From NCBI GenBank assembly GCA_039188975.1, contig JBCCYT010000006.1, positions 1-60,593 of the forward strand: a stretch of 60,593 nt of DNA. The letters are read 5' to 3'. Below, one piece after another: positions 16,810 to 38,071 of the stretch. This DNA is from Actinomycetota bacterium (GTDB lineage Bacteria > Actinomycetota > Acidimicrobiia > Acidimicrobiales > Aldehydirespiratoraceae). The notes below the pieces were generated by a model, which had not been told where the DNA came from, did no database searches, and was given only the letters and a program-made list of their open reading frames with translations. Position numbers and translations under genes: made by a program. Position 1 is the first letter of the stretch. Every line of letters starts with the position of its first letter.

Positions 16810-16830
16810 GGCCGGACGGTAGTCGGGCGA

Positions 16831-18033: not shown

Positions 18034-18076
18034 ATTCCCCCCTCGTGTTCCACCGCGAGACAGCTTCGCGTCGTGA

Positions 18077-19348: not shown

Positions 19349-19503
19349 GGCCGCCATGCTGGCACGATCCCAACGGCCAGTCCTCGTTGGCGCCCTCGGG
19401 TCCTGTGCCGTCGGGTCTTGTGTCAGCGAGCTGACTGATACGGTGCTGCCCCATCAGCGCTGACGGCAGCTGGTTCGGTCGCAGCCGGGGAAGTCTTTTC
19501 ACC

Positions 19504-19963: not shown

Positions 19964-19978
19964 TTTACAATCTGTCAA
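19964..19978 (+). promoter_or_regulatory. Palindromic operator TTTACA-ATC-TGTCAA overlapping a TACAAT -10 element and the start codon (probably leaderless)
   Basis: TACAAT at 19966-19971 lies 6 nt before ATG 19978. The same motif occurs at 36772. Confidence 0.6.
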
Positions 19979-21435
19979 TGACGGTTGACTGCCTCCATCC
20001 CGTCCAGCGCCTCGGGCGATCGATCGACCGGATCATCCGGCCGACGTCGCTCGACGATGCGCTCGCCGCGCTCGATGCCGATCCGACGATCAAGCCCATC
20101 GCCGGCGGAACCGATCTCCTGCTCGACCTCCATCGAGGCGGCCCGGGTGAACCGGTCACCCTGCTCGACCTCACCGCCATCGGAGAGCTCGACGGCATCA
20201 CCGTCGAACGCGGCATGGTCCGACTCGGGGCCCTCACCACCCACAACGATGTTGTCGGCCATCCCGAACTCCCGATCGTGGCGCTACCGCTCGCCCAGGC
20301 GTGTCTCGAAGTTGGGTCGGCCCAGCTCCGCAACCGAGCGACGATCGCCGGCAACCTGGCAACCGCCAGCCCTGCCAACGACACCATCTCCGCGCTCCTT
20401 GCACTCGACGCATTGGTGACGGTTCGTTCGGTGCAAGGCGAGCGGACCATCCGCCTCGACGACTTCGTGACAGGCTTTCGCACAACGGCGCTCGAGCCGG
20501 GCGAGATCATCACGGCGATCGAATTCCCGAGCCTCGACGACACGACCATCGGGATCTGGGTCAAGCTGGGAAACCGGGCCGCCCAAGCGATCTCGGTGGT
20601 GCACCTCGGGATCGTGATCGACCGGACGAGCGACGGCATCGTCCGAGATGCCCGAATCGCGATCGGCAGCGTTGCCGCCCGCGTTGAACTTCTCCCCAAC
20701 GCGGCACGCAATCTGATCAACCACACACTCGATGACGACACGATCGAGACGTGCGCGCAGCAAGCGGCTGCTGCCATCACTCCGCTCGACGATGTGCGTG
20801 CGACCGCCAGCTACCGCAGGGCGCTCGTTCCGACACTGGTCCGGCGGGCCCTCGAAGCCCTCCGTGACGACGCCGCCGCCAGCCGATGGCCCGGGCGGGT
20901 GCCACGCCTCACCAACCAGGAACGCCCGGTCCGCGTTCCGGCAGCGGACACGAGCGACCGTGCCGTCATTTCGATCACGGTCAACGGTGCCGAACAGGCC
21001 GGCCCACGAGGTGCATCTCGCACACTGCTCGACTGGCTCCGCGAGGAGCTCGCGCTCACCGGTGCAAAGGAAGGTTGTGCGGAGGGCGAATGCGGCGCAT
21101 GCACCGTGCAGCTCGACGGTGACGCGGTCATGAGCTGTCTGGTGCCCGCGGCACAGGCCGCCGACCGCTCCGTCACCACCGTCGAAGGGCTCGGCACCGC
21201 CCACCAACCCCACACGCTGCAGCAGGCATTCATCGACGAGTTCGCCGTGCAGTGCGGTTTCTGCATTCCCGGTTTCATCGTTGCCGGCGCAACCCTGATC
21301 GATGAACTTGCGGATCCGTCGGTCGATGACATCCGTCTCGGCCTTGCCGGCAACCTCTGCCGGTGCACCGGCTACTACCCGATCATGCAGGCCGTGCAAC
21401 GAGCAAGCGTCGTGCCGGTGGAACTCGAGCCATGA
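19978..21435 (+). CDS. Xanthine dehydrogenase-family FAD-binding subunit fused to a [2Fe-2S] subunit
   Basis: IAGGTDL and RNRATIAGN (FAD part); GCAEGECGAC, QCGFCIPG and GNLCRCTGY (two Fe-S clusters). Confidence 0.92.
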   Translation: MTVDCLHPVQRLGRSIDRIIRPTSLDDALAALDADPTIKPIAGGTDLLLDLHRGGPGEPVTLLDLTAIGELDGITVERGMVRLGALTTHNDVVGHPELPIVALPLAQACLEVGSAQLRNRATIAGNLATASPANDTISALLALDALVTVRSVQGERTIRLDDFVTGFRTTALEPGEIITAIEFPSLDDTTIGIWVKLGNRAAQAISVVHLGIVIDRTSDGIVRDARIAIGSVAARVELLPNAARNLINHTLDDDTIETCAQQAAAAITPLDDVRATASYRRALVPTLVRRALEALRDDAAASRWPGRVPRLTNQERPVRVPAADTSDRAVISITVNGAEQAGPRGASRTLLDWLREELALTGAKEGCAEGECGACTVQLDGDAVMSCLVPAAQAADRSVTTVEGLGTAHQPHTLQQAFIDEFAVQCGFCIPGFIVAGATLIDELADPSVDDIRLGLAGNLCRCTGYYPIMQAVQRASVVPVELEP

Positions 21436-23687
21436 GCGTCGGCCACTCCTCCGTCCGACGCGACGCCGCGGCGAAAGTCGACGGTTCCGCGGCCTACGCC
21501 GCCGACGTTGTGCCGCCCGAGGCACTGCACGCGGTGATCGTGTTCTCCGGACGCGCCCACGCCCGCATGATCTCAATGTCGACCACAGCCGCCCGGGCCA
21601 TCGATGGCGTCGTCGACGTCATCACCGCCGCCGACGCGCCGGTCAACGAGTACGGGCTGACCATGCTCGACCAGCCGGCGCTCGTCGGCGTCGATCACAC
21701 CGGCATGGCGCCCGTCGACGCATCGATCAGCCGGTGGGAAGCTGACCAGATCGCCGTCGTGATCGGGGAGACGGCCGCCGCAGCGCGAGCGGGCGCGGCC
21801 GCCCTCGACGTCATCTGGGAAGACCTCCCGCTTGTGACCGACATCGATCAGGCCCTCGAACCGGCCGCCCCCCTCCTCCACCCCGAGAACGGCCTCGACA
21901 CCAACGCCTACCACCACCTCAAGATCCGCAAAGGTGACATCGACTTCGGCTGGGCGGTCGCTGACGTCGTCGTCGACGACACCTACGAGGTGCCCCACCA
22001 AGAACACGCCTACCTGCAGCCCGAGGCGGGTACGTCCTACATCGACGACGAGGGGCGGGTCACGATCGAGGTCGGCGGCCAATGGACAACCGAAGATCGC
22101 GAACAAGTTGCCCACGTGCTCGGCCTACCCGAGGCCCAGGTCCGCATTGTCTACAAAGCGGTCGGCGGTGCGTTCGGCGGCAAAGAAGACATGTCGATCC
22201 AGATCGCGCTCGGGCTCGCCACACTGAGGCTTGCCGAGCGCGGCGAGCACCGACCCATCCACTGTCGCTGGTCGCGGGAAGAATCGATCGTTGGCCACCA
22301 CAAACGTCACCGCGGGCGTATCCGACTACGACTCGGAGCAACCAGCGAGGGAGAAATCACCGCCCTCGAGGCCGACGTCGATCTCGATGCCGGCGCGTAC
22401 AACTACACGTCCAACAAGGTGCTCGGCAACGCCCACCTGTCGGTCGCGGGCCCGTACCGGATACCCAACGCCCGCATCGACTCACGGGCGATCTACACGA
22501 CCAGCGTGCCGGGCGGCGCATTTCGCGGCTTCGGTGGCCCACAGGGGCACTTCGCCATCGAAACGGCACTGAACAAACTGGCGGAGCGCCTCGGTATCGA
22601 CCCGGTCGAGCTTCGGCTCCGCAATGCGCTCCGAGACGGCGACGCGAGCATCACCCAAGCCCCCATGCCGGACGGTGTCAGTATCCGCGAGGTCATCACG
22701 GCGTGCTCGATGCGAGCCGACCTCGGCGAGCCCTTCGGCGAACCCGAGCCATTCTCGCCCATTGCATCGCTGCCGTCCGCGCCGGACGCACTCCGCAACG
22801 GTAGGGGCTTCGCAGCCGGCTTCAAGAACGTCGGCTTCTCGTTTGGCTTCCCGGAACGGTGCGAAGCAGAGATCGTGCTCCACGGTTCGCCAGACGACGA
22901 AACGCCGACGCACGTCGACCTCTATCACGGAGGGGCCGAGGTCGGGCAGGGGCATCACCACGCAATGTTGCAGATCGCCGCTGACGCCACGGGCGTCGAA
23001 CTCGATCTCGTCGACGGGCACTTCAGCGACACCGCGACATCGGGCGACCCGGGGTCAGCATCGGCGAGCCGGTTGACGTTCATGGCCGGCAACTCGATCC
23101 TCGGGGCCGCAGAGGAGGCCGAGAAAGCATGGCGAGACGGCAGCCGGCCGGCTCGCGGCTTCTTTCGCTACACACCGCCACCAACCGAAGCACTCGACGC
23201 TGACACGGGGACTGGCGCCCCCAACTTCTGTATCGGTTACCTCGCGCAGTGTGTCGAGGTCACGGTCGACATCGACACCGGTCACATTCGAGTCGACCGG
23301 GTCACGTCAACTCACGACGTCGGCGCCGCGATCAACCCTCGACTCGTGCAGGGCCAGATCGAAGGCGCAGTGGTGCAAGCGCATGGCTACACGCTCAGCG
23401 AAGACCTTCAACTTGTCGATGGCTTCATCACCAACCCCCGTTTCTCGGGCTACTTGATTCCCGGTATCGGTGACATCCCCCTCGAGGTCGACAGCCAGAT
23501 CCTCGAGTTCGCCGATCCGCTCGGTCCGTTCGGTGCCCGCGGCGTCGCCGAGATGCCGTTCATCGCCTATGCACCAGCATTGATCGCGGCGGTCCACGAC
23601 GCGACCGGCGTGTGGTTCGACTCGTTCCCACTCACGCCGAGCCGGGTCCTCGAGGGACTGCGAGGGCTCTCGACCCCCACCGTCTGA
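21432..23687 (+). CDS. Xanthine dehydrogenase-family molybdopterin-binding subunit
   Basis: QEHAYLQPE, GGAFGGKE, AFRGFGGPQ, GQIEG and GARGVAE motifs; ATGA overlap. Confidence 0.93.
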   Translation: MSVGHSSVRRDAAAKVDGSAAYAADVVPPEALHAVIVFSGRAHARMISMSTTAARAIDGVVDVITAADAPVNEYGLTMLDQPALVGVDHTGMAPVDASISRWEADQIAVVIGETAAAARAGAAALDVIWEDLPLVTDIDQALEPAAPLLHPENGLDTNAYHHLKIRKGDIDFGWAVADVVVDDTYEVPHQEHAYLQPEAGTSYIDDEGRVTIEVGGQWTTEDREQVAHVLGLPEAQVRIVYKAVGGAFGGKEDMSIQIALGLATLRLAERGEHRPIHCRWSREESIVGHHKRHRGRIRLRLGATSEGEITALEADVDLDAGAYNYTSNKVLGNAHLSVAGPYRIPNARIDSRAIYTTSVPGGAFRGFGGPQGHFAIETALNKLAERLGIDPVELRLRNALRDGDASITQAPMPDGVSIREVITACSMRADLGEPFGEPEPFSPIASLPSAPDALRNGRGFAAGFKNVGFSFGFPERCEAEIVLHGSPDDETPTHVDLYHGGAEVGQGHHHAMLQIAADATGVELDLVDGHFSDTATSGDPGSASASRLTFMAGNSILGAAEEAEKAWRDGSRPARGFFRYTPPPTEALDADTGTGAPNFCIGYLAQCVEVTVDIDTGHIRVDRVTSTHDVGAAINPRLVQGQIEGAVVQAHGYTLSEDLQLVDGFITNPRFSGYLIPGIGDIPLEVDSQILEFADPLGPFGARGVAEMPFIAYAPALIAAVHDATGVWFDSFPLTPSRVLEGLRGLSTPTV

Positions 23688-23802
23688 CGGTTCCCGTCTC
23701 GTCCCCTGCGAGCATCATCAGCGGGCCCACGGCCGAAGATCCGACGTTGGCTCTCTCATACCGCAGCGCAGATCGCCGAGCCTTCCAGGGACCCTCGGAA
23801 GG

Positions 23803-25812
23803 ATGACGGACCCAATGACCGAGATTGCCCCGCAGTCGCCAACGGCGCGATTCCACATTCCCCTGCGCGTGCGATTCGCGGCGCTCGCGATCGTGCCCCT
23901 GCTGGGCATGGTCGTCTTCGCCAGCATCAACATCGGTCGCCAGGCCGACCAACGAGCCGAAGCAGAACAGTCAGAAACGCTGGCTCTGCTGAGCGTTCGC
24001 ATCGGCGACCTGCTTCACGAGACGCAGAAAGAGCGGGGCGCAACGGCGCTGTACCTCGGATCCGGCGGCGAGCGATTCCTCGAGGAACTGCCCGCCCAAC
24101 GCGACACCACCGACGGCCCGCGCACGGCGTTCCTCGAGTTCTTCGACCAACACGAAGGCGACCTGCCCGACGACCTGATCGCGGTTCTGCAGGCCCCGCT
24201 GGCATCGGTGGCTCAGCTCGATCAGCAGCGCGCGTTGGCCTGGGACCTTGCGGTGACCGCTCCCGAATCGATCGGGTTCTACACCGCGATGAACAGCGAG
24301 CTCCTGGATGCGGTCGCCGCCACGGCGACGTACTCGAAAGACCCGGCGCGCAAAGGCGCGATCATCACCTACGCCACCTTCCTCAACGCCAAGGAGCGGA
24401 CCGGCATCGAACGGGCCCAGGTCTCGTCGTTGTTCGCCCGCGGTGAGCCGGTGCCGGGCCAAATCAACGCGATCGTCGCCTTGGTCTCCGCCCAAGCCTC
24501 CTACCTCGACCTCTTCTCTGACCTTGCCGACGACGCCACCCTGGCGACCTTCGAGACGGCCCAGGCCGATCCGATCGTGGCTGAAGTCGCACGCATGGAA
24601 GCCATTGCGCTCGAAACCGACGTCAACGACCCGGCCTTCGACGGTTACGGCGAGGAACCGGAGTACTGGTTCGACACGATCACGGCCCGCATCAACCTGC
24701 TCAAAGGGGTCGAGGACTTCCAGGCCGATGCGATCATCTCAAGCGCCCAAGCCGCAGCAGCCAGCGCATCGAGCACGTACAACCGATCCTTGGCCTTCGC
24801 CCTCTTCGCCGGGCTGGCGACGCTCGCCGTTGCGGCGTGGACGACCCTCGACCATGTCCGGCGTCTGCGCCATCTCGCCGATGTCGCCGACTCGATCGCC
24901 AAGGGCCATCTCGCCGTCGAGGTTCCTGAACCCGTCGGCAACGATGACATCGCTCGCCTCACCCGAGGTTTCGCCAACATGGCCGAAGCCACGGGCGCGT
25001 CGGTCCGTCATCTCCAGGCATCGTCGGGCCGCCTCGGTGACACCGCTCACGATCTCGCGATGATGTCGGGCGCCGTCACCTCCCAAGCCGAGCAGGCCGC
25101 GTCTCAAGCTCAGGTCGCCAACGAGCTGTGCGCCAACGTCGGGGAGTCGATGGGGCGAGCGAACGACGCCATCACCACCATGGACAACTCGATCCGCCAG
25201 GTCGCCGATCGAGCAGCAACCGCCAATCGGGTTGCCGACGACGCCGTGCAAATCGCGGGCGAGTCGACCGCATCGATCGAGCAGTTGGGTGAATCGTCAA
25301 ACCGCATCGGCGAGGTGATCGACACGATCAATGCCATCGCCGAGCAAACGAACATGCTGGCGCTCAACGCCACCATCGAAGCGGCCCGAGCGGGCGACGC
25401 AGGCAAGGGATTTGCCGTCGTTGCGACCGAGGTGAAGGAACTCGCCAGCCAGACCGCCAATGCGACCCAGGAAATCAGCGAGCGGGTGGACACGATTCAA
25501 CGTGATGTCGCCACGGCAGTCGATGCCAACGGCAAGATCGCCGACACGATCCACCGAATCAACGAGATCAACGCATCGATCTCCGAGGCCGTCTCCGACC
25601 AAACGTCGGCGGTCGACGAGATCCGCGGCTCGATCGGTGTTGCAGCCGACGGCACAACCGCAATTCGCACGACGATGGAAGAGGTCACCGCCGCCGCGGC
25701 CGACACGCTGCAGGCCGGATCGAACGCTCAATCAGCTGCCAGCAACACAACATCGATTGCCGACGAGCTCGCCGATCTCGTCGATGCCTACCACCTCGAA
25801 CCCACCTCGTGA
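23803..25812 (+). CDS. Methyl-accepting chemotaxis protein with NIT (nitrate/nitrite-sensing) domain
   Basis: TM1, NIT-type repeats HETQKERG and [12 protein letters not shown]2, HAMP, and the signalling tip [20 protein letters not shown]. Confidence 0.9.
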
Positions 25813-25900
25813 CGACGATCGGCACCGGTTCTTATCCGGCCTTCCGTCGTACCGAGACTGCACTCACCTTCCCTCCACCAGCAGATTTCAAGGCCCAGCA

Positions 25901-27508
25901 ATGAATTCCTCCGCGCTTTCCAGCATCGTGCGACCAACCGTCGGACGAAAGATCGGCGTCTGCCTCGCCGCTGTCGTGGTCGTATCGATTTCGGTGTCGT
26001 TCTGGGAGGCCTCGAAGGCGGCCGAGGTGAACGACAAGGTCCATGACTTCGTCGATGCCGACGCACCGGCCGAAGCACTCTTGCTCAACATCGACCGCGA
26101 CGCCTATCAAGCTCAAATCGCCATCGAACAGATGGTGACAGCCTCGCCGGCTGCGATCGCAGCGCTGCTCGACGACTACGCGGGCAACCGCGATCAGACG
26201 CAAAGCCGGTGGGACGAGTACAAGGCAACCGCTCGTGGGCTCGGCGACGAGCAGGCTCGGTGGCCAGCATTCGATGCGGCGCGATCCGCCTGGGTCGCCG
26301 CGACCGACGACCTTGCTGAACGTCTGGCCGCGGGCGAGCGGGCACCGGACCCGGCACTCATCGCGGATGTCGCCGCAAGCCGCGAACTCTTCAACGGTGT
26401 CCGGGACGTGATCGATCCGATCGTCGAAGAGATCTACGTCCCCAACCACGCGGACTTCAGCAGCAGTGTGGACTCCACCACGGACTCCGGAGAGCGCGCC
26501 GCGTGGATCGCCGCCGTCTTCACGCTGGCCGTCTTCGCCGTTGGGCTCTGGGTCGCCAACCGCATCTCGACGACGATTCGCCGCATGGAGCGTCACGCCG
26601 ATCGAATCGCCAGCGGCGACCTTTCCGAAACCGAGATCACCGTGACCAGCAACGATGAACTCGGCGATCTCGCCACCTCGTTCTCCCGGATGGGCGAGTC
26701 GGTGAAGACCATGGTGACACGGGTGAAGGACTCTGCGGAGGGGCTGCAGAGCGCGTCGGAACGTCTCACCCAGATGTCGAGCAGCATGAACGAGAGCGCC
26801 ACGCTCACCTCTGACCAGGCCAAGAGCTCGTCAGGCACCAGTGAGAACGTCAGCATGAGCGTGGCGTCGGTGGCCTCGGCCGTCGAACAGGTGAACTCGA
26901 CCATCCGTGAGGTCTCCGCAAGCGCAAGCGAAGCCGCTGCGGTCGCCGGCGAGGCGGTTCACCTCGCCCGTGCGTCGTCCAGCTCGATCGGCAAGCTGGG
27001 CGAATCATCAGAACAGATCGGTGCTGTCATCGAGGTGATCTCATCGATCGCCGAGCAGACCAACCTGCTCGCGTTGAACGCCACGATCGAAGCAGCCCGG
27101 GCCGGCGAGGCAGGCAAGGGATTCGCCGTCGTCGCCAGCGAAGTCAAGGATCTCGCCAACCAGACCGCGGTTGCCACCGAGGAGATCGCGGCTCGAATCC
27201 AAGCGATCCAAACCGACACCGCCGGTGCCGTCAGCGCCAACGAACACATCGGCGAGATCATCGATCGCATCAATCAGATCTCCGCGACCATCGCCGCCGC
27301 AGTCGAAGAGCAGTCGATCACTACCCAAGAGATCGGCCGCAGCGTCGAGGACGCGGCCACCGGCTCCCAAGACATCAGTACGTCGATCTCACACGTTGCT
27401 GCCGCCGCCGAGTCGACCCGCTCCACGACCGTCGAGACCCGCACCTCAGCCGAGGAGATGGCCGCGATGGCCGACGAACTCACCGCCCTCGCGAGCAACT
27501 ACCGCTGA
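25901..27508 (+). CDS. Methyl-accepting chemotaxis protein with helical-bundle sensor
   Basis: Two TMs, HAMP (NDELGDL), [30 protein letters not shown]. Start ATG 25901. Confidence 0.92.
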
Positions 27509-27612
27509 TCACACGCACCACCCACCACTCCCACGCACAACCTGACCCACCCCGCACTCGTCACCGGTAGCGACCGGCGCGACGAACCCCAAACCACAAC
27601 AGGGACATCACC

Positions 27613-30021
27613 ATGGATGACGACATCATCGAAGAGTTCCTGGTCGAAGCCTTCGAAGGGCTCGACCAACTCGAACACAACTTCGTGACGCTCGAGTCGA
27701 CCCCCGACGACGAGATGACCCTGAAGGAGGCATTCCGGACCCTTCACACCATCAAAGGCACGTGTGGATTCCTCGGCTTCGAGCAACTCGAGATCGTTGC
27801 CCACCGGGGTGAGAACCTCATGAGCCAGCTTCGAGAGGGTGCGCTCTCGATGAACCAGGCGATCACCGACGCCTTGCTCGCAACCGCCGACCGGATTCGA
27901 TTGATTCTCGAACAGATCGAGTCGACAGGCGCCGAAGGGACCCACGACAGTACCGAGCTCATCGCTCGTCTCGAGGGGCTTGCAGCCGGCGAGGAAGGCT
28001 CGACGACCACCACCGACGACGGACCGGTCGAAGCCACACCGGCGGCGCCGGCGGAGATGACCGAGGCCCCGACGAGCGAAACCAGTGAGACCAACGAGAC
28101 CGACCAGCCCGAGGCCGCCGTCCCCGTCGCCGCCGACGACACCACTGCGACCGACGAGACCACTGCGACCGACGACTCGAACCGGATCGGTGACCTGCTC
28201 GTGAGCACCGGCGCGGTCGACCGGACCGACGTCGAGTTCGCCGCCACTCGCCAAGAGGAGTTCGGCGACCACCGAAAGCTCGGAAAGATCCTCGTCGCAG
28301 ACGGGCGCACCTCCCAGGCCGAAGTCGATCAGGCGGCCGCAAAACAACGCGGCAGCGAAGGCAGCGGCTCCATTCGAGTCGATGTCGCCGTACTCGATGA
28401 ACTGATGAACCTGGTGGGTGAGCTCGTGCTCTCCCGCAATCAGATCATGCAGCTGGCTGGACTCGAACACCTCAAGGAGTTCACGGCGCCAGCGCAGCGA
28501 CTCAACCTGATCACGAGCGAACTCCAGGAAGGCTTCATGCAGACCCGCATGCAGCCCATCGGCAATGTGTGGAACAAGCTTCCTCGCGTCATCCGAGACT
28601 TGTCCGGGCAGCTCGACAAGCAGATTCGTGTCGAGATGCACGGTGAAGAGACCGAGCTCGACCGCACGATTCTCGAGGCCATCAAGGACCCGCTGACCCA
28701 CATGGTCCGCAACACGGCCGACCACGGGATCGAGTCGCCCACCGAACGCCGCGATGCAGGCAAGGACGCCGAAGGTGTCCTGAAGCTCTCGGCCTGGCAC
28801 GAAGCCGGGCAGGTCCACATCGAAATCGCCGACGATGGACGCGGTATCAGTGCTGATGTCATGCGGGTCAAGTGTGTCGAGAAAGGCTTGATCACCGCCG
28901 ACGAAGCCGACCGAATGACCGACGCGCAGGCCATCCAGTTGATCTTCCGACCCGGGTTCTCCACCGCCCAGGCGGTGAGCAACGTCTCCGGTCGAGGCGT
29001 CGGTATGGACGTTGTACGGACCAACATCGAACGGATCGGCGGCTCCGTCGAGGTCAAGACGTCGCCCGGCGAAGGCACAACCTTCCGCATCACGATCCCG
29101 CTCACCCTCGCGATCATCCAGGCGATCATCGTGCAGTGCGACGGCACCCGATATGCCGTGCCCCAACTCAGTCTGCAGGAACTCGTCCGACTCGACGTCG
29201 GCGAACGCATCGAAGAGGTTCGCGGCGTACCGGTCTTTCGACTCCGCGACCGGCTGTTGCCGATCGTGGATCTTCGAGAGCAACTCAGCGCGGAGTCGGT
29301 TGAGCGAGGGGTTGGGACGAGCATCGTCGTCCTCCGGGCCGAAGGCCATGCGTTCGGTCTCGTCGTGGACGCGATCGAGGACACCGAAGAGATCGTGGTC
29401 AAGCCACTGGGTCGTTCGGTCAAAGACATCGACCGCTTCTCCGGCGCCACGATCATGGGCGACGGTTCCGTTGCCCTCATCCTCGATGTCACCGGCATCG
29501 CCAACGCCAGTCGAGTCCTGTCAGCGGGTTCTCCGGCACTCGAGGAGGCGGCTGACCTGTTCGAGAACGCTGACCGGGGCGTCGATGATCGCACGATCCT
29601 GACGGTGTCGCTCGGCGATGGCTCCGAGGCTGCGCTCTCGCTCAGTCAGATCGACCGGCTCGAAGAGTTCGCCGCCGATCGAGTCGAGTCGAGCGCCAAC
29701 AGCAACATCGTGCAGTACCGCGGAGAGATCATGCCGCTCTTGGATCTTGGACCACAGACCGGCCGCGGACGCTCAGCGTTCGCCGATCGAGACCGCGTCA
29801 ACGTCGTGGTGTGCAAGGTCGATGGCGTGTCCGTCGGGATCGCCGTGGACCGCGTCCTCGACATTGTGTCCGACCCGGAGATTCGCTGGAACGCCGAAGG
29901 CAACACCGAGACGGCCATCGTCAAGGGCCACGTCGTCGACGTGCTCGACCTCTTCGCCCTGATCCAGCGTTATGTGCCGTTGTCCGAGAAGCCCGAAAAC
30001 CTCACAGGAGCCGCATCATGA
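27613..30021 (+). CDS. cheA: Chemotaxis histidine kinase CheA (Hpt, MshEN-like insert, kinase, two CheW-like domains)
   Basis: FRTLHTIKG (Hpt), IRVDV, HMVRNTADHGIE and GRGVGMDVV motifs; C-terminal CheW-like repeats. Confidence 0.95.
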   Translation: MDDDIIEEFLVEAFEGLDQLEHNFVTLESTPDDEMTLKEAFRTLHTIKGTCGFLGFEQLEIVAHRGENLMSQLREGALSMNQAITDALLATADRIRLILEQIESTGAEGTHDSTELIARLEGLAAGEEGSTTTTDDGPVEATPAAPAEMTEAPTSETSETNETDQPEAAVPVAADDTTATDETTATDDSNRIGDLLVSTGAVDRTDVEFAATRQEEFGDHRKLGKILVADGRTSQAEVDQAAAKQRGSEGSGSIRVDVAVLDELMNLVGELVLSRNQIMQLAGLEHLKEFTAPAQRLNLITSELQEGFMQTRMQPIGNVWNKLPRVIRDLSGQLDKQIRVEMHGEETELDRTILEAIKDPLTHMVRNTADHGIESPTERRDAGKDAEGVLKLSAWHEAGQVHIEIADDGRGISADVMRVKCVEKGLITADEADRMTDAQAIQLIFRPGFSTAQAVSNVSGRGVGMDVVRTNIERIGGSVEVKTSPGEGTTFRITIPLTLAIIQAIIVQCDGTRYAVPQLSLQELVRLDVGERIEEVRGVPVFRLRDRLLPIVDLREQLSAESVERGVGTSIVVLRAEGHAFGLVVDAIEDTEEIVVKPLGRSVKDIDRFSGATIMGDGSVALILDVTGIANASRVLSAGSPALEEAADLFENADRGVDDRTILTVSLGDGSEAALSLSQIDRLEEFAADRVESSANSNIVQYRGEIMPLLDLGPQTGRGRSAFADRDRVNVVVCKVDGVSVGIAVDRVLDIVSDPEIRWNAEGNTETAIVKGHVVDVLDLFALIQRYVPLSEKPENLTGAAS

Positions 30022-30488
30022 CCGCCACCCAGATCCACACCGGTCTGCAGGTCTGCACCTTTCGCCTCGGCGAGTTGCTGTTCGGTGTCGACGTCCTCGA
30101 CGTGCAAGAGGTGTTGTATCACGCCGACATCACGCCAGTGCCGCATGCGCCCGAGGCGGTCAGCGGCTTGATCAACCTTCGCGGCCAGATCGCGACGACG
30201 CTCGACCTCCGGACCCGACTCGGAGAGATGACCGACGACAGCGACGAGCCGAACCCCAACCCAACCCATGTCGTGGTTCGGTCGAGCTACGAACCGGTTT
30301 CGCTGCTCGTCGACCGGATCGGCGACGTACTCGACATCGAAGCAGACCGGTTCGAAGAACCGCCGCCCACGATGCACGACGAGGCCACGCAAGCAATCCT
30401 CGGCGCCTACCGCCTGGACGACGAGATCCTCTTGATCCTCGATGTCGACCATCTGATCGAGCTCGAACTCCCGACCGAAGAGAGCTGA
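30018..30488 (+). CDS. cheW: Chemotaxis coupling protein CheW
   Basis: TFRLG, VQEV, TPVPHAP, GLINLRGQI and LLVDRIGDV motifs; ATGA overlap with cheA. Confidence 0.94.
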   Translation: MTATQIHTGLQVCTFRLGELLFGVDVLDVQEVLYHADITPVPHAPEAVSGLINLRGQIATTLDLRTRLGEMTDDSDEPNPNPTHVVVRSSYEPVSLLVDRIGDVLDIEADRFEEPPPTMHDEATQAILGAYRLDDEILLILDVDHLIELELPTEES

Positions 30489-30516
30489 CGCAGTCGGAAC
30501 CGGGACGGGCTCACGA

Positions 30517-33036
30517 TCAAACGTCGAGGCGAAGCTCGACGTCCATCGACATGGTGCACGCGCCAGCGAACTCTCGAGACGAACGACCGAGATGGATCAG
30601 GTAGTCGCCTGGGTCGATGTACCAACCCGCCGCCTCTCGGTGTCGGCCGCCACCACCGGCGGGGACGAGGCTGTTCGCCGCCAGCTCGGCATACACCGGG
30701 TCGCCCGGATCGAACGATGCGAACGCCCGAGCGTCGAGATCGAGGGTGACGGTCATCGACTCACCAGGATCGAGGGTGACCTTCGCAAAGGCCTTCAACT
30801 CGCGGACCGGTCGCGGCACCGGACCGGTTGGCGGCTCGACGTAGGCCTGCACCACCTCACTCCCCCGGCGGTCTCCGGTGTTGGTCACGGTGACGTCGAT
30901 TGACGCACCGTCATCGAACGTGATCGACGAGGGCATGTCGCTGAGTTCGAAGGTCGTGTAACCGAGCCCAGATCCGAACGCAACGGCTGGTTCGATGCCA
31001 AGCGCGTCGTGCCAGCGGTGGCCGCAGTACACGCCCTCTCCGTAGCGAACGACACCGTTCTCGCCGGGGTAGTTCGTGAAGGCGGCGAAATGCTCGTAGC
31101 GGGCGCCGATGGTTGTCGGTGCCCGCCCCGAGGGTTCGAGCAAACCGGTCACCATGTCGACCACCGCTTCACCCAGCTCCTGGCCGGCGAAGCCAACACT
31201 GAGAACCGCAGCGGGTTCGTCGATCCAGTCGACCGCATGAGGCGAACCCACGTTCATCACGACGATGGTGCGCGGGTTGGCAGCTGCCACGGACCGGATG
31301 AGTTCGGGCTGGCCCCCGGGGAGCTCCCACAGGTCCCGGTCGCGGCCTTCGGTCTCCCAGTCGTCGTTCGTGCCGACGACCACGAGAGCCACGTCGCATT
31401 CGGCTGCCAAACGAGCGGCGTCGCCGATCAAGTCCCGTTCAACGAGCGGTCGAGCACCGACGATCACGCCGGACAACAAGATCGCTCCCTCGTTGGTGAA
31501 GTCGATCTCGACGGTGGTCGCTCGGCCGGCGGTGAGCGTGGCCTGCGCTGACAGTTCGATCGAGCCGAACCCGAAGAAGGCGTCGCCGCGCTCGATGTTG
31601 GAATCGGTGGCATCGATCACCACCTCGCCATCGACCCGCAAGATGGCCCGCCCCGACTCGGTGAGCGTGAAGACGTGAGGCCCATCCACCTCCGGCACGA
31701 TCGTGGCCGTGATGCGTGCGCTCCATCGTTCCGCATCGATTCCGTCGACCGGCGACCCGAACGCAAGCAGCGACGTCCGCCCCTCATGTCCGACGGCATC
31801 GGCCGTACCGTCAAAGCTCCATCCGTTGCGATATTCGACCGTCGTCGTCCCGTCCAGGAGCGGCCGAGCGATCGGTGGCACCGTCCGGTCGATGTCGGCG
31901 CCTTGGGCAAACCGGATGTCGAGATCGGGGTATCGCGCCTCGAGCGCATCGAGTGGAGACGTGTCGTGATACGCCCGCACGGTCGCAGAACCGCCGCCCA
32001 TCACTTTGGCGTTGCGAGCATTCGGACCGATCACGGCAACCGACCCGAGAGAACCCGGATCGAGCGGCAAAATCCCGTCGTTGCGCAACAACACCGACCC
32101 TGCGGCCGCGGCGCGGCGATTCAGCACCCGATCTTCGGGCCGGTCGAGCGGCTTCTCTGGCTCGTTGCCCCGCCCATCGAGCGCACCGGTTCGTTCGAGG
32201 AGCACGAGCAGATCGTCGACCAGGGCATCGACCGCGGTTTCCTCGACCTCACCGGCCTCCATGGCCGCAACGAGCGCTTCACCGTAGAACCGGCCTGGCC
32301 CGGGCATCTCGAGGGTCATCTGCGCGGTGACCGATCCGGACGTTGAACCGTTCGCAAACCAGTCGGTGACGACAAAGCCGTCGAATCCCCACTCGTCTCG
32401 CAGGACCGTCTTCAGGAGCCACTCGTGCTCAGAGCAGTATGTTCCATTGAGTCGGTTGTAGGCCGTCATCAACCCCCATGCACCGCCCTCCTTGACCGCC
32501 AATTCGAACGGCAACAGGGCGACCTCGCGCAGCGTGCGTTCGTCGATCTGGGAATCGATGGTGTTGCGTTCGAACTCGCTGTCGTTCCCGACGAAGTGTT
32601 TGGCGGTGACCGCAACCGCTTCCGACTGGACGCCGCGAACGAACGCGGCGGCGATCTTGCCGGTGAGCAGTGGGTCTTCGCTGTAGCACTCGAAGTTGCG
32701 GCCGCCCTTCGGTGACCGGTGGAGGTTGATCGTCGGCGCCAGCAGCACGTGTGAGCCCTTTGCTCGTGCCTCTTCACCGAGGAGGTGGCCAAGCTGTTCG
32801 ACCAGCGCCGGGTCCCAAGTCGCGCCGAGCGCGGCACCCGACGGAATACACGCGGTCGGCGTGCCGGTGCCCATGAGACCATCACCTCGGGCACCGTTGG
32901 GGCCGTCGGTCACCTTCAGGGCCGGGATCCCGAGCCGTTCGATTGGGGCGGTGTGCCACATGTCGACGCCGGCGACGAACATCGCCTTTTCGTGCGGGGT
33001 CATCTGGGCGCGTAGCGACTCGGTGCGTTGCGACAT
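30517..33036 (-). CDS. GH3 beta-glucosidase with PA14-like and Fn3-like domains
   Basis: TDGPNGARG, GRNFECYSEDP, KHF, VVTDW nucleophile, ETEGRDR, RELKAFAKV. Confidence 0.93.
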   Translation of the reverse strand: MSQRTESLRAQMTPHEKAMFVAGVDMWHTAPIERLGIPALKVTDGPNGARGDGLMGTGTPTACIPSGAALGATWDPALVEQLGHLLGEEARAKGSHVLLAPTINLHRSPKGGRNFECYSEDPLLTGKIAAAFVRGVQSEAVAVTAKHFVGNDSEFERNTIDSQIDERTLREVALLPFELAVKEGGAWGLMTAYNRLNGTYCSEHEWLLKTVLRDEWGFDGFVVTDWFANGSTSGSVTAQMTLEMPGPGRFYGEALVAAMEAGEVEETAVDALVDDLLVLLERTGALDGRGNEPEKPLDRPEDRVLNRRAAAAGSVLLRNDGILPLDPGSLGSVAVIGPNARNAKVMGGGSATVRAYHDTSPLDALEARYPDLDIRFAQGADIDRTVPPIARPLLDGTTTVEYRNGWSFDGTADAVGHEGRTSLLAFGSPVDGIDAERWSARITATIVPEVDGPHVFTLTESGRAILRVDGEVVIDATDSNIERGDAFFGFGSIELSAQATLTAGRATTVEIDFTNEGAILLSGVIVGARPLVERDLIGDAARLAAECDVALVVVGTNDDWETEGRDRDLWELPGGQPELIRSVAAANPRTIVVMNVGSPHAVDWIDEPAAVLSVGFAGQELGEAVVDMVTGLLEPSGRAPTTIGARYEHFAAFTNYPGENGVVRYGEGVYCGHRWHDALGIEPAVAFGSGLGYTTFELSDMPSSITFDDGASIDVTVTNTGDRRGSEVVQAYVEPPTGPVPRPVRELKAFAKVTLDPGESMTVTLDLDARAFASFDPGDPVYAELAANSLVPAGGGGRHREAAGWYIDPGDYLIHLGRSSREFAGACTMSMDVELRLDV

Positions 33037-33106
33037 GCCCCGGAAGCTAGTCGCCTCGGCCCGCGTCGAGTTGCGCTCGACCGCACCGGTTCCCCAGACT
33101 CGGGGC

Positions 33107-34894
33107 ATGGCTGACTCCGCCGACGACACCGCTGACATCGATGCCCAGATCGCTGCGGCGCGCGATCGCTACGCCGAGGAGCGAGCCAAGCGAGTGAAGC
33201 CCAAGGGCGACACGCAGTACAACCTGCTGTCGGGGAAGTTCGCCGACTTCGACACCGACCCGTACGTCGAGCCGGGTTTCCGTCGAGACCCGATCGTCGA
33301 GGAGTTCACCGCCGTGATTCTCGGCGGCGGTTTCGCCGGGATGATGACTGCGGTTGAACTCACCAAACACGGCATACGCGACTTCCGAATCATCGAGAAG
33401 GGCGGCGACTTCGGCGGCACCTGGTACTGGAACCGCTACCCGGGCTGCATGTGCGACGTCGAGTCCTACACCTATTTGCCGCTGCTCGAAGAGACCGGCT
33501 TCATGCCGTCGGAGAAGTACGCCAGCGCACCAGAGATCTTCCGGTACTGCCAGACGATCGGCGAGCACTTCGATCTGTACCCCCACGCGATCTTTCAGAC
33601 CGAGGTCACCGATGCGACGTGGAGCGACGAGACCGGTCGCTGGTCGATTGCGACAACACGAGACGACGAGATCACCGCCACCTTCTTCGTCACCGCTGGG
33701 GGGATTCTGCACAAGGCAAAGCTGCCCGGCATCCCCGGCATCGAAGACTTCGAAGGACACGCGTTCCACACCAGCCGATGGGACTACGGCTACACCGGCG
33801 GTTCGCCGACCGAACCAATGGACAAGCTCGCCGACAAGCGGGTCGGCATCGTCGGCACCGGCGCAACAGCAGTGCAAGCCGTCCCCAAGCTCGCCGCGAC
33901 CGCCAAAGAGCTCTACGTCTTCCAACGCACACCAGCCGCGGTCGGGTTCCGCGGCAACGGGCCAACCGACGCCACCTGGTTCACCACCCAGGAGGAAGGC
34001 TGGCACGAGAAGCGGGTGGTGAACTTCACCCACTGTGTGACCGGCGTGAAACCCGACGAGGTGTTGGTCAACGACGAATGGGTCGGGGCCAACTGGGACA
34101 ACACGCAGCTGGCGGCCGACACGCCCGAGGAACAGGCCGAGCTCGACCGGCTCGACTTCGCGGTCATGGACGGTATTCGTCAACGCATCGACGATCTGGT
34201 CGACGACCCCGAGACCGCCGACAAGTTGAAGCCGTGGTACGGCAAGCACTGCAAGCGGCTCACCTTCCACGACGAGTACCTGCCCGCGTTCAACCAGCCC
34301 AACGTGCACCTCGTGGACACCGACGGGCAGGGCCTCCAGCAGATCAACGCCGCAGGAGCCGTGGTCGACGGGGTCGACTACCCGCTCGACTGCATCGTGT
34401 TCGCATCCGGGTTCGAGATCATGGCCGACTTCAAGACCCGGCTCGGGTTCGATCCGGCCGGCCGGGACGGTGTGCGCTTGAGCGAGCGCTGGCACGACGG
34501 CGCTCACTCACTGCACGGCGTGCTCTCACACGACTTTCCGAACATGATGATGATCTCGATCATTCAGGCCGGCTTCGGTGTGAACTTCGTGCACTTTCTC
34601 GGCAAATCGGCGCAGCACGTGGCGTGGCTGATCAATGAATGCGTGTCGCGTGAGATCGAACGCATCGAGCCGAGTGTCGAGGCCGAGGAGGAGTGGCTGA
34701 TGCTGTTGTTCGGTCAAGCGGGCCGGATGGGTGCGTACTCGATCAACTGCACGCCGAGCTACTACAACAACGAGTCGAACTTCGAGGACATGAAAGTCCG
34801 CAACCTCGTCTACACCGGCAGTTTGCTCGACTACGCCGGCTTCCTTGAGGACTGGCGCAACGCCGGCGACCTCCCCGGCACTGTCACCCAGTAA
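33107..34894 (+). CDS. Baeyer-Villiger monooxygenase (flavin-containing)
   Basis: GGGFAG, GGTWYWNRYPG, BVMO fingerprint FEGHAFHTSRW, and GTGATAVQ. Confidence 0.93.
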   Translation: MADSADDTADIDAQIAAARDRYAEERAKRVKPKGDTQYNLLSGKFADFDTDPYVEPGFRRDPIVEEFTAVILGGGFAGMMTAVELTKHGIRDFRIIEKGGDFGGTWYWNRYPGCMCDVESYTYLPLLEETGFMPSEKYASAPEIFRYCQTIGEHFDLYPHAIFQTEVTDATWSDETGRWSIATTRDDEITATFFVTAGGILHKAKLPGIPGIEDFEGHAFHTSRWDYGYTGGSPTEPMDKLADKRVGIVGTGATAVQAVPKLAATAKELYVFQRTPAAVGFRGNGPTDATWFTTQEEGWHEKRVVNFTHCVTGVKPDEVLVNDEWVGANWDNTQLAADTPEEQAELDRLDFAVMDGIRQRIDDLVDDPETADKLKPWYGKHCKRLTFHDEYLPAFNQPNVHLVDTDGQGLQQINAAGAVVDGVDYPLDCIVFASGFEIMADFKTRLGFDPAGRDGVRLSERWHDGAHSLHGVLSHDFPNMMMISIIQAGFGVNFVHFLGKSAQHVAWLINECVSREIERIEPSVEAEEEWLMLLFGQAGRMGAYSINCTPSYYNNESNFEDMKVRNLVYTGSLLDYAGFLEDWRNAGDLPGTVTQ

Positions 34895-34918
34895 TCCTCG
34901 TCGTCGACGACGCGACAC

Positions 34919-36286
34919 TCACTCCGGGCGGAATCGGCGGGCAGCAGCGCCATGAGCCGCGAGCTTGTCGTCGAGGTCGGGGGCGACAAGGAGACCCGAC
35001 TCGACGATCGAACGACCGGCGACGATGGTGTGCCATGCCGCATGAGGACCGGTGCGCAACCAGCCTTCGATGAGGTCCTCGACCACGCCGGCAAAGATCG
35101 GGCCGTCGAGCTTCCACACGGCAATGTCGCCGACCGCACCAACGGACAACTCGCCGATCTCACCAACCCGACCCAAGCAGCCGGCACCACCGCGGGTGGC
35201 AACTTCGAGCGCCGTCCGAGCGTCCATCGCCGCCGCGCCGCTCTTCAGTTTGCCTTGCAACATCGAGAGCCGAGCCTCTTGCCACAGCGATGCCGAGTCG
35301 GCTGACGACGAGCCGTCGCAACCCAAACCGACATGGCACCCCGCTGCCCGAAGATCGACGACTGGGGCGATACCCGAAGACAGGATCATGTTGGAGCTCG
35401 GGCAGTGCGCAATCCCCACACCCGCTGCGCCGAGCCGAGTCACTTCCTCCGGGTTCGGCATGACGACGTGCGCACCCCAACTGCGGTCCGACATCCAGCC
35501 GCAGTGCTCGTAGTAGTCGACCGGCCGCATCCCGAACCGGGCCAGGGCGAACTCGTCGTCCTCCGCGTTCTCGGCGAGGTGGGTGTGCAACCGAACGTCG
35601 AGCTGCTCCGCCAGCTCTGCGCTGCGAATCATCAGATCGGTGGTGACGGTGAAAGGTGAGCACGGCGCCAACGCAATCTGCACCATCGAGCCATGGGTCG
35701 GGTCGTGGTGGCGCTCCACCGCCCGCTGTGACTCGGCGAGGATGTCGTCCTCGTCGCGCACCGCGGCGTCGGGGGGCAAGCCGCCCTTGCTCTCGCCGAG
35801 CGACATCGAGGCGTACGTCGGGTGAAAGCGCATGCCGAGATCGCGGGCGGCTCGGATCTCTGCGCCGAGGAGATCACCCGCCCGTACAGGGTGGAGGTAG
35901 TGATGATCAGACGACGTGGTGCATCCGGAGAGAGCCAGCTCGGCAAGCCCCACCCAGGCCGCGAGGTACTCCGCTTCCTCGTCGATTGCGTCGGTCCAGA
36001 GCGGATACAGCGACTGCAACCAGCCGAACAGAGGCGCCGAGGTCATCGGCGGGTATGCACGGGTCAGATTCTGGAAGAGATGGTGGTGGGTGTTGACCAG
36101 GCCCGGGGTGACGAGCCCGCCGTCGGCGTCGATCACGCGCGCCGCACTCGGCTCCGGGTCGAGCGACGTGCCCACCCCCGACACAAGGCCATCGGTTACC
36201 GCCACCCAGCCACCGGAAAGCTCTCGTCGCTCCGAGTCGACCGTTGCGACCAGCCCTGCGTTGCGGATCAGCAGATCAGCTGTCAT
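34919..36286 (-). CDS. 8-oxoguanine deaminase-like amidohydrolase
   Basis: PGLVNTHHHLFQNLTR, GGLPPD, APCSPF, HTHLAE, HCPSSNM and GCDGS motifs. Confidence 0.85.
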   Translation of the reverse strand: MTADLLIRNAGLVATVDSERRELSGGWVAVTDGLVSGVGTSLDPEPSAARVIDADGGLVTPGLVNTHHHLFQNLTRAYPPMTSAPLFGWLQSLYPLWTDAIDEEAEYLAAWVGLAELALSGCTTSSDHHYLHPVRAGDLLGAEIRAARDLGMRFHPTYASMSLGESKGGLPPDAAVRDEDDILAESQRAVERHHDPTHGSMVQIALAPCSPFTVTTDLMIRSAELAEQLDVRLHTHLAENAEDDEFALARFGMRPVDYYEHCGWMSDRSWGAHVVMPNPEEVTRLGAAGVGIAHCPSSNMILSSGIAPVVDLRAAGCHVGLGCDGSSSADSASLWQEARLSMLQGKLKSGAAAMDARTALEVATRGGAGCLGRVGEIGELSVGAVGDIAVWKLDGPIFAGVVEDLIEGWLRTGPHAAWHTIVAGRSIVESGLLVAPDLDDKLAAHGAAARRFRPE

Positions 36287-36767
36287 CGGCGATGGCGTTC
36301 AGGTAGTTGTAGATGGTGATGCGGCTGACGCCCATCATGTCGCCGACCGACTCAACGGCCTTGCGAAGCAGGAACGCACCGCGCTGATCGAGGATTCGGA
36401 CCGCCGCCTGCTTCTGCTCGCGGCTGAGCTCCGCAAGCGGTGCGCCGAGTTGTTCTTCGACCGCAGCAACCATCTGGCCGAGGGCATCGTGGAGATCCCC
36501 GAATCGAGCGACGGAGGGCGAATCACCCATCCGGACCTGCACGGCCGTTGCGCCGTGCTCGAGCGCGACGCGACTCATGTCTCGGATTGCGTCGGTGACC
36601 AACCCGGCGGGACCGTGAATCGTGGTCGCAAACGGCCCGAGTTCGGGTTCGAGCCCGTGGCTGCGGCACGCGTCGAGGGCCATCCGTACGTGATGACCGG
36701 GGGCGCCTTCAACGAACGGTTCGACGATGAACTCGGCCCGAATGTCGGCGGTCCCAGCAGTGGTCAT
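36276..36767 (-). CDS. Transcriptional regulator: thiamine-binding/YkoF-like ferredoxin-fold domain fused to a C-terminal HTH (YheO/HTH_22-like)
   Basis: N-terminal EFIVEPF...LGPFATTIHG; C-terminal KQAAVRILDQRGAFLLRKAVESVGDMMGVSRITIYNYL. Confidence 0.75.
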   Translation of the reverse strand: MTTAGTADIRAEFIVEPFVEGAPGHHVRMALDACRSHGLEPELGPFATTIHGPAGLVTDAIRDMSRVALEHGATAVQVRMGDSPSVARFGDLHDALGQMVAAVEEQLGAPLAELSREQKQAAVRILDQRGAFLLRKAVESVGDMMGVSRITIYNYLNAIADDS

Positions 36768-36770
36768 GGC

Positions 36771-36787
36771 TTTGACAGTTTGTTAAA
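36771..36787. promoter_or_regulatory. Palindromic operator TTTGACA-GTT-TGTTAAA in the 31-bp divergent intergenic region
   Basis: Near-perfect inverted repeat; matches the 19964 box. Confidence 0.65.
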
Positions 36788-36798
36788 TTCGGCGGTTC

Positions 36799-38058: not shown

Positions 38059-38071
38059 TGGACATGAACCC

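Follow-up and report, generated by a model that had tools for sequence, protein, structure and literature searches.

A putative operator shared by purine-catabolic genes of uncultured marine Acidimicrobiia, and its candidate DUF77-HTH_22 regulator

The locus and its palindromes

A stretch of 60,593 nt (positions 1-60,593 of contig JBCCYT010000006.1, assembly GCA_039188975.1) from an actinobacterium of the family Aldehydirespiratoraceae, referred to here as the window, harbours two molybdoenzyme loci separated by a gap of 17 kb. A palindrome of the form TTNACA-N3-TGTNAA (TTNACANNNTGTNAA) is found at the promoter of each, and the second locus also encodes a 163 amino acid (aa) protein in which a DUF77 domain (Thiamine_BP; YkoF/MTH1187-like) is fused to an HTH_22 helix-turn-helix domain. 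The evidence set out below makes it likely that this palindrome is the operator of a regulon governed by the 163 aa protein, and that the regulon includes two further promoters on other contigs. The positions of sites and genes are collected in Table 1.

The two 15 bp palindromes reported in an initial annotation of this DNA, here termed O1 (TTTACA-ATC-TGTCAA, TTTACAATCTGTCAA) and O2 (TTGACA-GTT-TGTTAA, TTGACAGTTTGTTAA), were both found in place. At the first locus, the last A of O1 is also the A of the start codon of a 485 aa protein carrying flavin adenine dinucleotide (FAD) and [2Fe-2S] domains, the orthologues of which align starting at residue 1. The ATG of the gene for the adjacent molybdopterin-binding (Mo) subunit overlaps the stop codon of this flavoprotein gene (ATGA at 21432). 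At the second locus, the start codons of the regulator gene (CAT on the minus strand, 36765-36767) and of an M20-family amidase gene (36799) are separated by 31 bases, 15 of which make up O2. The regulator gene overlaps the gene for a 455 aa deaminase by 11 bases, and both are in the same operon. Profile searches upheld the gene content that had been read from the DNA, consisting of the FAD/Fe-S and Mo operon, the deaminase, the M20 amidohydrolase, the carbon-nitrogen (CN) hydrolase and a FAD-less [2Fe-2S] and molybdopterin protein, the last abbreviated here to the FeS-Mo enzyme.

Table 1. Sites and genes of the proposed regulon (positions refer to the window unless a contig is named)
Feature	Position	Strand	Remarks
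Operator O1	19964..19978	.	overlaps the -10 box and start codon of the FAD/Fe-S and Mo operon
Probable -10 hexamer TACAAT (TANNNT)	19966..19971	+	begins at -12 from the ATG; leaderless geometry
Flavoprotein/iron-sulfur subunit, 485 aa	19978..21435	+	FAD_binding_5, CO_deh_flav_C, Fer2, Fer2_2; profile searches
Molybdopterin-binding subunit (PucD/XdhA-like)	21432..23687	+	profile searches
Amidohydrolase, 455 aa	34919..36286	-	best match 8-oxoguanine deaminase; NF006055, 564 bits against a cut-off of 532
Regulator, 163 aa	36276..36767	-	DUF77/Thiamine_BP (YkoF/MTH1187-like) at residues ~8-81, HTH_22 at ~97-157
Operator O2	36772..36786	.	in the 31 bp divergent promoter region
Possible -10 hexamer TAAATT of the M20 gene	36784-36789	+	at -15; overlaps the right half-site of O2
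M20 hydantoinase/carbamoylase-family amidase, 419 aa	36799..38058	+	allantoate amidohydrolase-like; profile searches
Carbon-nitrogen hydrolase, 341 aa	38072..39097	+	N-carbamoyl-amidase-like; profile searches
Fused 2x[2Fe-2S] and molybdopterin enzyme, 863 aa	39090..41681	+	no FAD domain; XdhD/TIGR03311-like
Short SsnA-like amidohydrolase, 342 aa	42944..43972	+	no operator of its own here; linked to the pathway through synteny in G030
Operator 3, TTTACAGAATGTCAA	contig C154:9857		contains the ATG of a gene for a pyridoxal phosphate (PLP)-dependent enzyme
Operator 4, TTTACAAAATGTCAA	contig C203:1379		35 nt upstream of the start codon of an F420-type luciferase-like (LLM) oxidoreductase gene

Frequency of the palindrome

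Within the window, the degenerate pattern matched with up to one mismatch at O1 and O2 only, each on both strands, and none of 100 shuffled sequences reached these four matches (mean 0.10). As the degenerate pattern was itself written from O1 and O2, searches of the whole genome under study (G000; 4,726,565 bases in 328 contigs, 65.7% G+C) provide the fairer test. Here TTNACA-N3-TGTNAA has four exact occurrences, relative to the 0.19 expected under a third-order Markov model, and the stricter TTTACA-N3-TGTCAA (TTTACANNNTGTCAA) has three, relative to approximately 0.005 when both orientations are taken together. Altering the spacer to two bases left no matches, and altering it to four left one. 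The suggestion that such palindromes would be improbable by chance in this GC-rich DNA is therefore borne out by the four exact sites. A scan permitting one mismatch added six matches, a chance level given that the reversed pattern had seven; no weaker operators were accepted from it, and the regulon of this genome is consequently taken to be the four exact sites.

Two of the four lie outside the window, on contigs C154 and C203, next to the genes for a PLP-dependent enzyme and an F420-type LLM oxidoreductase. The regulon initially proposed, which joined the two molybdoenzyme loci, thus finds support in that respect but was drawn too small, and the operator at the FAD/Fe-S gene, on which it partly relied, varies between lineages.

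Co-occurrence of the palindrome and the regulator

The 163 aa protein is the sole HTH_22 match in the genome under study. Of the remaining 15 genomes of the genus, 14 encode an orthologue, and orthologues also occur in two further genera of the same family, with more distant matches across the order; in total, the family extends to at least 822 protein clusters, all with generic public names ('HTH domain-containing', 'YqgV/DUF77'), and to 344 genomic relatives when one genome per species is counted.

A motif scan of the genome and its relatives, set beforehand as a check, found that the sites are kept and that they track the regulator gene. All 18 regulator-bearing genomes scanned (G000, G002-G015, G025, G028 and G030) hold two to four sites, whereas 11 of 12 regulator-less genomes (G001, G016-G019, G021, G026, G027, G029 and G031-G033) hold none and the remaining one holds a single site, the reversed-pattern control giving zero to two matches per genome. 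In a first scan, in which the control gave zero to one matches per genome, sites had been absent from all seven regulator-less genomes. Five of the regulator-less genomes (G016-G019 and G021) retain a close orthologue of the 863 aa FeS-Mo enzyme (68-74% identity); their sites number 0, 0, 0, 0 and 1, and the single site-bearing genome among them also shows two control matches.

The pairing is also one of position. In 16 of 17 orthologous loci the regulator gene is directly preceded by a site, and in the seventeenth, that of G023 (48% regulator identity), the site carries one mismatch. The ten fixed positions are necessarily invariant among these 16 sites, as the strict pattern was used to find them, while the spacer is GTT, TTT or ATT, the unconstrained positions 3 and 13 are constant, and the flanks drift. 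A class-wide scan at one genome per species covered 80 of the 344 relatives' loci (±4 kb), nearly all from metagenome-assembled genomes labelled as Acidimicrobiia-type. In 79 of these there was enough upstream sequence to search from -200 to +40 relative to the regulator start, and strict sites were found within this interval in 36, relative to none for the reversed control. Allowing up to one mismatch raised this to 53, relative to two for the control. A further 15 strict sites lie elsewhere in the 79 loci, the control having no matches in these 591 kb. The pairing of motif and regulator persists down to around 47% regulator identity. The original proposal that the fused HTH protein binds both boxes thus gains weight from its being the only HTH_22 protein of the genome, from co-occurrence, and from the site upstream of its gene across the class, which together make it the best candidate for the binding protein.

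Recurrent targets and synteny

Amongst the 15 regulator-bearing genomes of the genus, 13 carry a site at the PLP-enzyme gene. The open reading frames (ORFs) downstream of such sites, checked at 10 loci in nine genomes, are 89-94% identical, and the spacer, being part of the coding sequence for the first residues of the protein, is always GAA. In the genome under study this gene (locus L001, C154 9857-10302) is truncated by the contig end; its full-length orthologues are 514 aa PLP-dependent proteins of the PALP fold that show a weak likeness to CysK and have an N-terminal extension of around 120 aa with no Pfam match. Only models of the CysK type match, and weakly (around 70 bits, against a cut-off of 351), and the matches in the PDB are cysteine synthases. 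Two side observations concern the same protein: across the genus it is more conserved, at 89-94% identity, than the regulator (67-86%), and in G011 the gene is present twice, with an operator at either copy, which could reflect a true duplication or two strains binned together.

The operator of the FAD/Fe-S operon is less constant, with a full palindrome in eight of the 15 genomes, one half-site in six and neither in one. The full palindromes, which are TTTACAATCTGTCAA in G000, G013 and G015 and TTTACACTTTGTAAA in G007, G009, G011, G012 and G014, always end on the A of the ATG, and a site with one mismatch is found at the FAD/Fe-S gene of G022, a member of another genus. Membership of the first locus therefore appears lineage-specific, the operator having decayed or being absent in seven of the 15: it seems real in the genome under study and its nearest relatives, and evolutionarily labile. 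At the decayed sites (L070, L075 and L078-L081), the left half doubles as the -10 box (TTTACACTC...) and the regulator and other operators are kept, which looks like the loss of a target from a regulon within a single genus.

Other targets recur at greater distances. The F420 LLM gene carries a site in G000, G013 and G015, and also in G028, from another family; YgfK-like genes are found behind operators in G006 and G014 (382-436 bits, against a cut-off of 835); and the FeS-Mo gene carries a site in G030, the complete 2.0 Mb genome of a member of a further family. In G030, one operator precedes a single co-directional block comprising the genes for the FeS-Mo enzyme, a short SsnA-like protein (354 aa), the F420 LLM enzyme and separate FAD, Fe-S and Mo subunits, in that order, with the M20 and CN-hydrolase genes directly upstream. 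This clustering, which is independent of the motif, indicates that the dispersed loci of the genome under study belong together. Similarly, 74 of the 80 regulator loci in the class-wide scan have at least one of the pathway gene families within 4 kb, the tallies being 51 for the CN-hydrolase, 45 for the FeS-Mo enzyme, 43 for the M20 enzyme, 32 for the deaminase, 30 for the Mo subunit and 21 each for the FAD/Fe-S and YgfK-like proteins. That O1 and O2 are operators of one type, placing two molybdoenzyme loci in a single regulon as first envisaged, is accordingly supported by the conservation of the motif and by the single cluster in G030.

Architecture of the regulator

The regulator matches HTH_22 (PF13309) at residues 97-157 with 69.1 bits, against a gathering cut-off of 29.6, and Thiamine_BP/DUF77 (PF01910) with 26.6 bits, against a cut-off of 24.9. 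No PAS family was found in its N-terminal half by the Pfam search, and a fold search with this half gives DUF77 structures. An AlphaFold2 model made from 34 homologues, with a predicted local distance difference test score (pLDDT) of 85.7, comprises a ferredoxin-like domain (residues 8-81), a poorly ordered linker and three helices. Foldseek matched the N-terminal domain to 1yqh, 2eky, 1vk8, 1lxj and 1lxn (E 9e-6 to 4e-4; template modelling scores of 0.54-0.62 on the target), its fold being the ferredoxin-like beta-alpha-beta arrangement of solved DUF77 members; searching the PDB by sequence only gave weak matches (1vk8, E 0.054). The helix-turn-helix stretch M145-A158 is invariant in an alignment of the 34 homologues, in agreement with the conserved half-sites of the operator.

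Modelled as a homodimer, the regulator scored 0.49, with 0.00 for the best control, a mark reached by 20 of 30 solved homomeric pairs and one of 23 single-chain proteins. At least 61% of contacts agreed between runs, the pLDDT of the partner was at least 73, and the interface was formed by residues 54-83 of the DUF77 domain. As DUF77 oligomers have already been solved, the pass may reflect mere likeness to these; the predicted homodimer nonetheless fits the two-fold symmetry of the operator.

Several known proteins share parts of this architecture. Like the YheO-type regulators, which combine PAS_6 with HTH_22 (E. coli YheO, C. jejuni Cj1387c and DauR), it appears to be a one-component protein with an N-terminal sensor and a C-terminal HTH_22 domain, but the sensor is a ferredoxin-fold domain resembling DUF77 and YkoF rather than PAS. 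It shares the fold of residues 8-81, and in the predicted model dimerisation through this domain, with the stand-alone proteins of the DUF77/UPF0045/MTH1187/YkoF group for which the five structures above were solved, but these are around 100 aa in length and have no DNA-binding domain, whereas here the domain is fused to a helix-turn-helix and found in a purine-catabolic context. YkoF is a thiamine/hydroxymethylpyrimidine (HMP)-binding protein. PucR of Bacillus subtilis and XdhR of Streptomyces are one-component regulators encoded adjacent to the xanthine dehydrogenase and ureide-degrading genes that they control, and the same pathway-specific logic seems to apply here; however, PucR (PucR-type) and XdhR (TetR-type) belong to protein families unrelated to DUF77-HTH_22, and their operators differ. 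Among the titles listed in the literature searched, none on DUF77 and its relatives concerned a transcription factor and none dealt with a DUF77-HTH_22 regulator; the supplements of two 2025 preprints could mention such regulators.

Promoter geometry

The hexamer TANNNT peaks at position -12 from start codons in the genome under study, being found there in 242 of 4,442 long ORFs against a background of around six, and at -13 to -15 in 98, 86 and 36 ORFs, respectively. Roughly a tenth of the ORFs, around 460, therefore have it between -15 and -12. The peak at -12 suggests that leaderless transcription from promoters with only a -10 box is common in this genome. Leaderless transcription is also common in mycobacteria. 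The putative -10 box of the FAD/Fe-S gene has exactly this geometry, and in the PLP-enzyme gene, the ATG of which is inside the operator, TAGCTT at -12 abuts the site. Similarly, TAAAGT at the LLM promoter overlaps the right half-site of its operator, an arrangement resembling that proposed for the M20 gene (Table 1). A search for E. coli-type terminators at O1 and O2 found nothing. A reading of the palindrome as an RNA element was rejected by reasoning, since a 6 bp AT-rich hairpin upstream of an inferred leaderless start would go untranscribed.

Relationship to purine degradation

The gene content of the regulon looks like an Acidimicrobiia version, in remodelled form, of the reductive uric acid (2,8-dioxopurine) pathway. 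In two preprints describing this route (bioRxiv 10.1101/2025.05.19.654654, Li et al.; bioRxiv 10.1101/2025.04.24.650524, Liu et al.), YgfK or UacX acts as the dearomatising enzyme, SsnA and HyuA are responsible for ring opening, the ureido groups are taken off by YgeY and YgeW/UacY, and the cleavage of diaminopropionate falls to YgeX. The reduction of urate is attributed to XdhD, which according to the former preprint has a FAD subunit, YgfM, in E. coli but lacks FAD in C. difficile, where ferredoxin is put forward as the donor; it also reports a putative F420 luciferase-family enzyme in place of YgfK in Chloroflexota, and the presence of SsnA in Actinomycetota too (bioRxiv 10.1101/2025.05.19.654654).

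In terms of gene families, the E. coli, C. difficile and C. sporogenes clusters have counterparts here in a fused XdhD-like FeS-Mo enzyme, FAD-less as in C. difficile, an SsnA-like protein, a YgeY-like M20 enzyme, a reductase that is either YgfK-like or of the F420 luciferase family, and a PLP-dependent enzyme that takes the position of YgeX. By contrast, a CN-hydrolase is found where YgeW/UacY would act, the PLP enzyme is the 514 aa CysK-like protein, and a conventional FAD-containing xanthine dehydrogenase (XDH) and an 8-oxoguanine-deaminase-like gene are apparently co-regulated with the rest. The regulator is also of a different kind, that of the E. coli cluster being the sigma-54 activator YgeV, and the genes belong to marine Acidimicrobiia instead of gut anaerobes. 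No paper linking Acidimicrobiia, xanthine dehydrogenase and uric acid was found in the literature searched.

The correspondence is best expressed as 'works like' rather than as proven membership, since matches to several curated models come near their cut-offs or fall short of them. The 863 aa enzyme matches TIGR03311 ('selenium-dependent xanthine dehydrogenase') over its full length with 789 bits, relative to a cut-off of 830.45, and TIGR03313, the E. coli XdhD type, with only 185 bits; its orthologues share 83-91% identity inside the genus and 67-75% in the wider order. The 342 aa SsnA-like protein covers profile positions ~54-340 of 441 with 229-250 bits (cut-offs 444-455), both ends of the model being absent. 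As a 354 aa counterpart lies directly 3' of the FeS-Mo gene in G030, this short form appears to be conserved, rather than a broken gene. The 419 aa M20 amidase is a candidate YgeY analogue. The operator-linked PLP enzyme, judged by its profile and PDB matches, is not an orthologue of YgeX, a true copy of which was not searched for in the genome. The conventional XDH and the 8-oxoguanine-deaminase-like enzyme could feed urate into the route.

Model of regulation and alternatives

The statistics of the motif, its co-occurrence with the regulator, phylogenetic footprinting and synteny strongly support TTNACA-N3-TGTNAA as the operator of a regulon governed by the DUF77-HTH_22 protein, and we regard this core of the model as likely to be right. 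The regulator would dimerise through its DUF77 domains, setting two HTH_22 domains on the two half-sites, and, when bound, would block RNA polymerase at four promoters: that of the XDH-type FAD/Fe-S and Mo operon; the divergent promoter serving the regulator-deaminase operon and the M20, CN-hydrolase and XdhD-like FeS-Mo operon; that of the 514 aa PLP enzyme gene on C154; and that of the F420-type LLM gene on C203. A purine-derived small molecule held in the DUF77 domain would release the regulator from the DNA, as proposed from the gene context and the binding of thiamine and HMP by YkoF, though confidence in any particular ligand is low. The protein is probably an ordinary palindrome-binding, one-component regulator with an uncharacterised sensor domain.

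Repression seems the more probable mode of action, as the operators all lie over or directly beside a -10 box or transcription start, a judgement held with somewhat less assurance than that on the operator itself. An activator or dual regulator acting at the same operators is unlikely. It would accommodate the lack of uniformity in their positions, with the site 35 nt ahead of the LLM start codon and, depending on lineage, 4-100 nt ahead of that of the regulator gene, as well as the failure to place a -10 box for the regulator gene, which also counts against the scheme as a whole. However, at the FAD/Fe-S and PLP promoters the operator covers the -10 box, the leaderless start codon or both, such that a bound protein would occlude RNA polymerase, and at the other two promoters TANNNT likewise overlaps a half-site. 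That the motif is itself just a promoter element (a -10, -35 or alternative-sigma site), accidentally palindromic in AT-poor DNA, has only a very slight chance of being correct, even though TTGACA is the textbook -35 consensus, TACAAT and TACACT make good -10 boxes, and six relatives that retain the FAD/Fe-S gene (G002-G005, G008 and G010) keep just the left half with the -10 box (gggTTTACACTC..ccgATG). A promoter element would not be expected to conserve both half-sites as an inverted repeat around a fixed 3 bp spacer of varying sequence, at differing offsets from the start codons of its targets, nor to track one regulator gene; and although some 460 ORFs have a suitably placed TANNNT, the palindrome is found in only four places. 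Some of the conservation of the half-sites must still be due to promoter function, given that parts of them double as -10 hexamers.

These last two points, the decayed operators and the double duty of the half-sites, belong with others that weigh against the model. G006 has neither palindrome nor half-site at its FAD/Fe-S gene; 26 of the 79 class-wide loci have no site, even with one mismatch, between -200 and +40, several having sites 0.2-2.3 kb upstream instead; and no site lies near the G030 regulator, which is approximately 1 Mb from the sites of that genome. The co-occurrence counts overstate independence, as 15 of the 18 regulator-bearing genomes are from one genus. A scan for E. coli-type two-hexamer promoters found nothing at O1 or O2, a result that is uninformative for actinobacterial promoters. 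No published operator for any HTH_22 protein was found for comparison in the literature searched, including passages of PMC10717218. With regard to the pathway, the XdhD/TIGR03311 and SsnA matches fall under their cut-offs, and a profile search of the genome under study found no match to the YgfK-specific N-terminal half. The G030 arrangement could also be taken to mean that a different transcription factor, co-inherited with the catabolic genes, binds the palindrome, the DUF77-HTH_22 protein recognising something else, and co-occurrence within a set of relatives would not tell apart two factors inherited as a pair. Such a factor is nevertheless improbable: a site lies beside the regulator gene in the 53 class-wide loci noted above, at identities down to ~47%; no other regulator-type Pfam family is found among the scanned ORFs next to the four sites of the genome under study; and the five family members that keep the FeS-Mo enzyme and lack the regulator are all but devoid of sites.

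A separate suggestion of the initial annotation, that the FAD-less enzyme at 39090 takes its electrons through the flavoprotein of the first locus, is very improbable and was not retained. Both enzymes appear to belong to one regulon and nearly always co-occur, but this does not discriminate, as consecutive steps of one pathway predict the same. In E. coli, as noted above, XdhD does use a separate FAD subunit, and a free-standing FAD subunit gene clusters with the FeS-Mo gene in G030, leaving a small possibility of such sharing. However, the flavoprotein of the first locus has its FAD domain fused to two [2Fe-2S] domains of its own and shows translational coupling with a Mo subunit from the same operon, whereas the 863 aa protein likewise has two [2Fe-2S] domains and matches the full FAD-less TIGR03311 architecture, for which the ferredoxin proposed in C. 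difficile offers a precedent.

New in the DUF77-HTH_22 model are the operator and the four-promoter regulon, a concrete assignment for a family of transcription factors that has only generic public names. The model also gives a plausible role as a sensor to DUF77, a widespread domain without a settled function, and through regulation and synteny places genes from three contigs in a single purine-degrading pathway of abundant, uncultured marine actinobacteria. In relatives, searching with the motif could turn up pathway genes still missing, for example those for the unusual PLP enzyme and the F420 reductase, which helps to trace the rebuilding of the recently discovered reductive urate route in bacteria other than gut anaerobes. 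A more ambitious version, possible yet on balance doubtful, would have DUF77 as the ligand-sensing module and the DUF77-HTH_22 protein as a dedicated sensor of a purine catabolite (urate, 2,8-dioxopurine or 8-oxoguanine) in these Acidimicrobiia. It would then co-repress the urate-forming XDH and the urate-reducing XdhD-like enzyme, implying that presumably aerobic bacteria have an oxidise-then-reduce purine route of a kind so far described in gut anaerobes only.

Neighbouring genes and minor features

The region from 34900 to 41700 is present in three DNA runs of one marine-metagenome study, and no RNA run was listed for it. Downstream, the SsnA-like gene overlaps a NUDIX gene (43969-44706) by four bases. 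On contig C203 (locus L002), a perfect 10 bp inverted repeat (CCTTGGATCG, a 4 nt loop, CGATCCAAGG) at ~1341-1378 sits in the 35 nt leader of the LLM gene and covers its Shine-Dalgarno-like bases, AAGGA. The LLM leaders of G013 and G015 differ in sequence, and no repeat of this type was seen in them by eye. The repeat on C203 may serve as a hairpin for translational control or may have arisen by chance.

The genes that separate the molybdoenzyme loci (23803-34894) encode a methyl-accepting chemotaxis protein with an NIT domain, a second such chemotaxis protein, a CheA-CheW fusion, a GH3/PA14 glycosidase and a Baeyer-Villiger-type monooxygenase (PtlE-like, 625 bits). In G012, G007 and G009 the loci are just 7-9 kb apart, and the intervening genes of G012 differ from those of the genome under study, encoding an enoyl-CoA hydratase and an AMP-dependent ligase. 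This shorter distance in relatives, with other genes between the loci, makes the 17 kb gap look like the result of a later insertion or rearrangement. Upstream of O1 (14688-19893) are genes for a TauD-family dioxygenase, a second CN-hydrolase, a beta-lactamase-fold protein and an alpha/beta hydrolase resembling PAF-acetylhydrolase, as well as a 129 aa SpoIIAA-like ORF. A TauD-family gene may be a member of the regulon in G007, G009, G011 and G012, as in these four genomes it and the FAD/Fe-S gene point away from each other with the operator between them.

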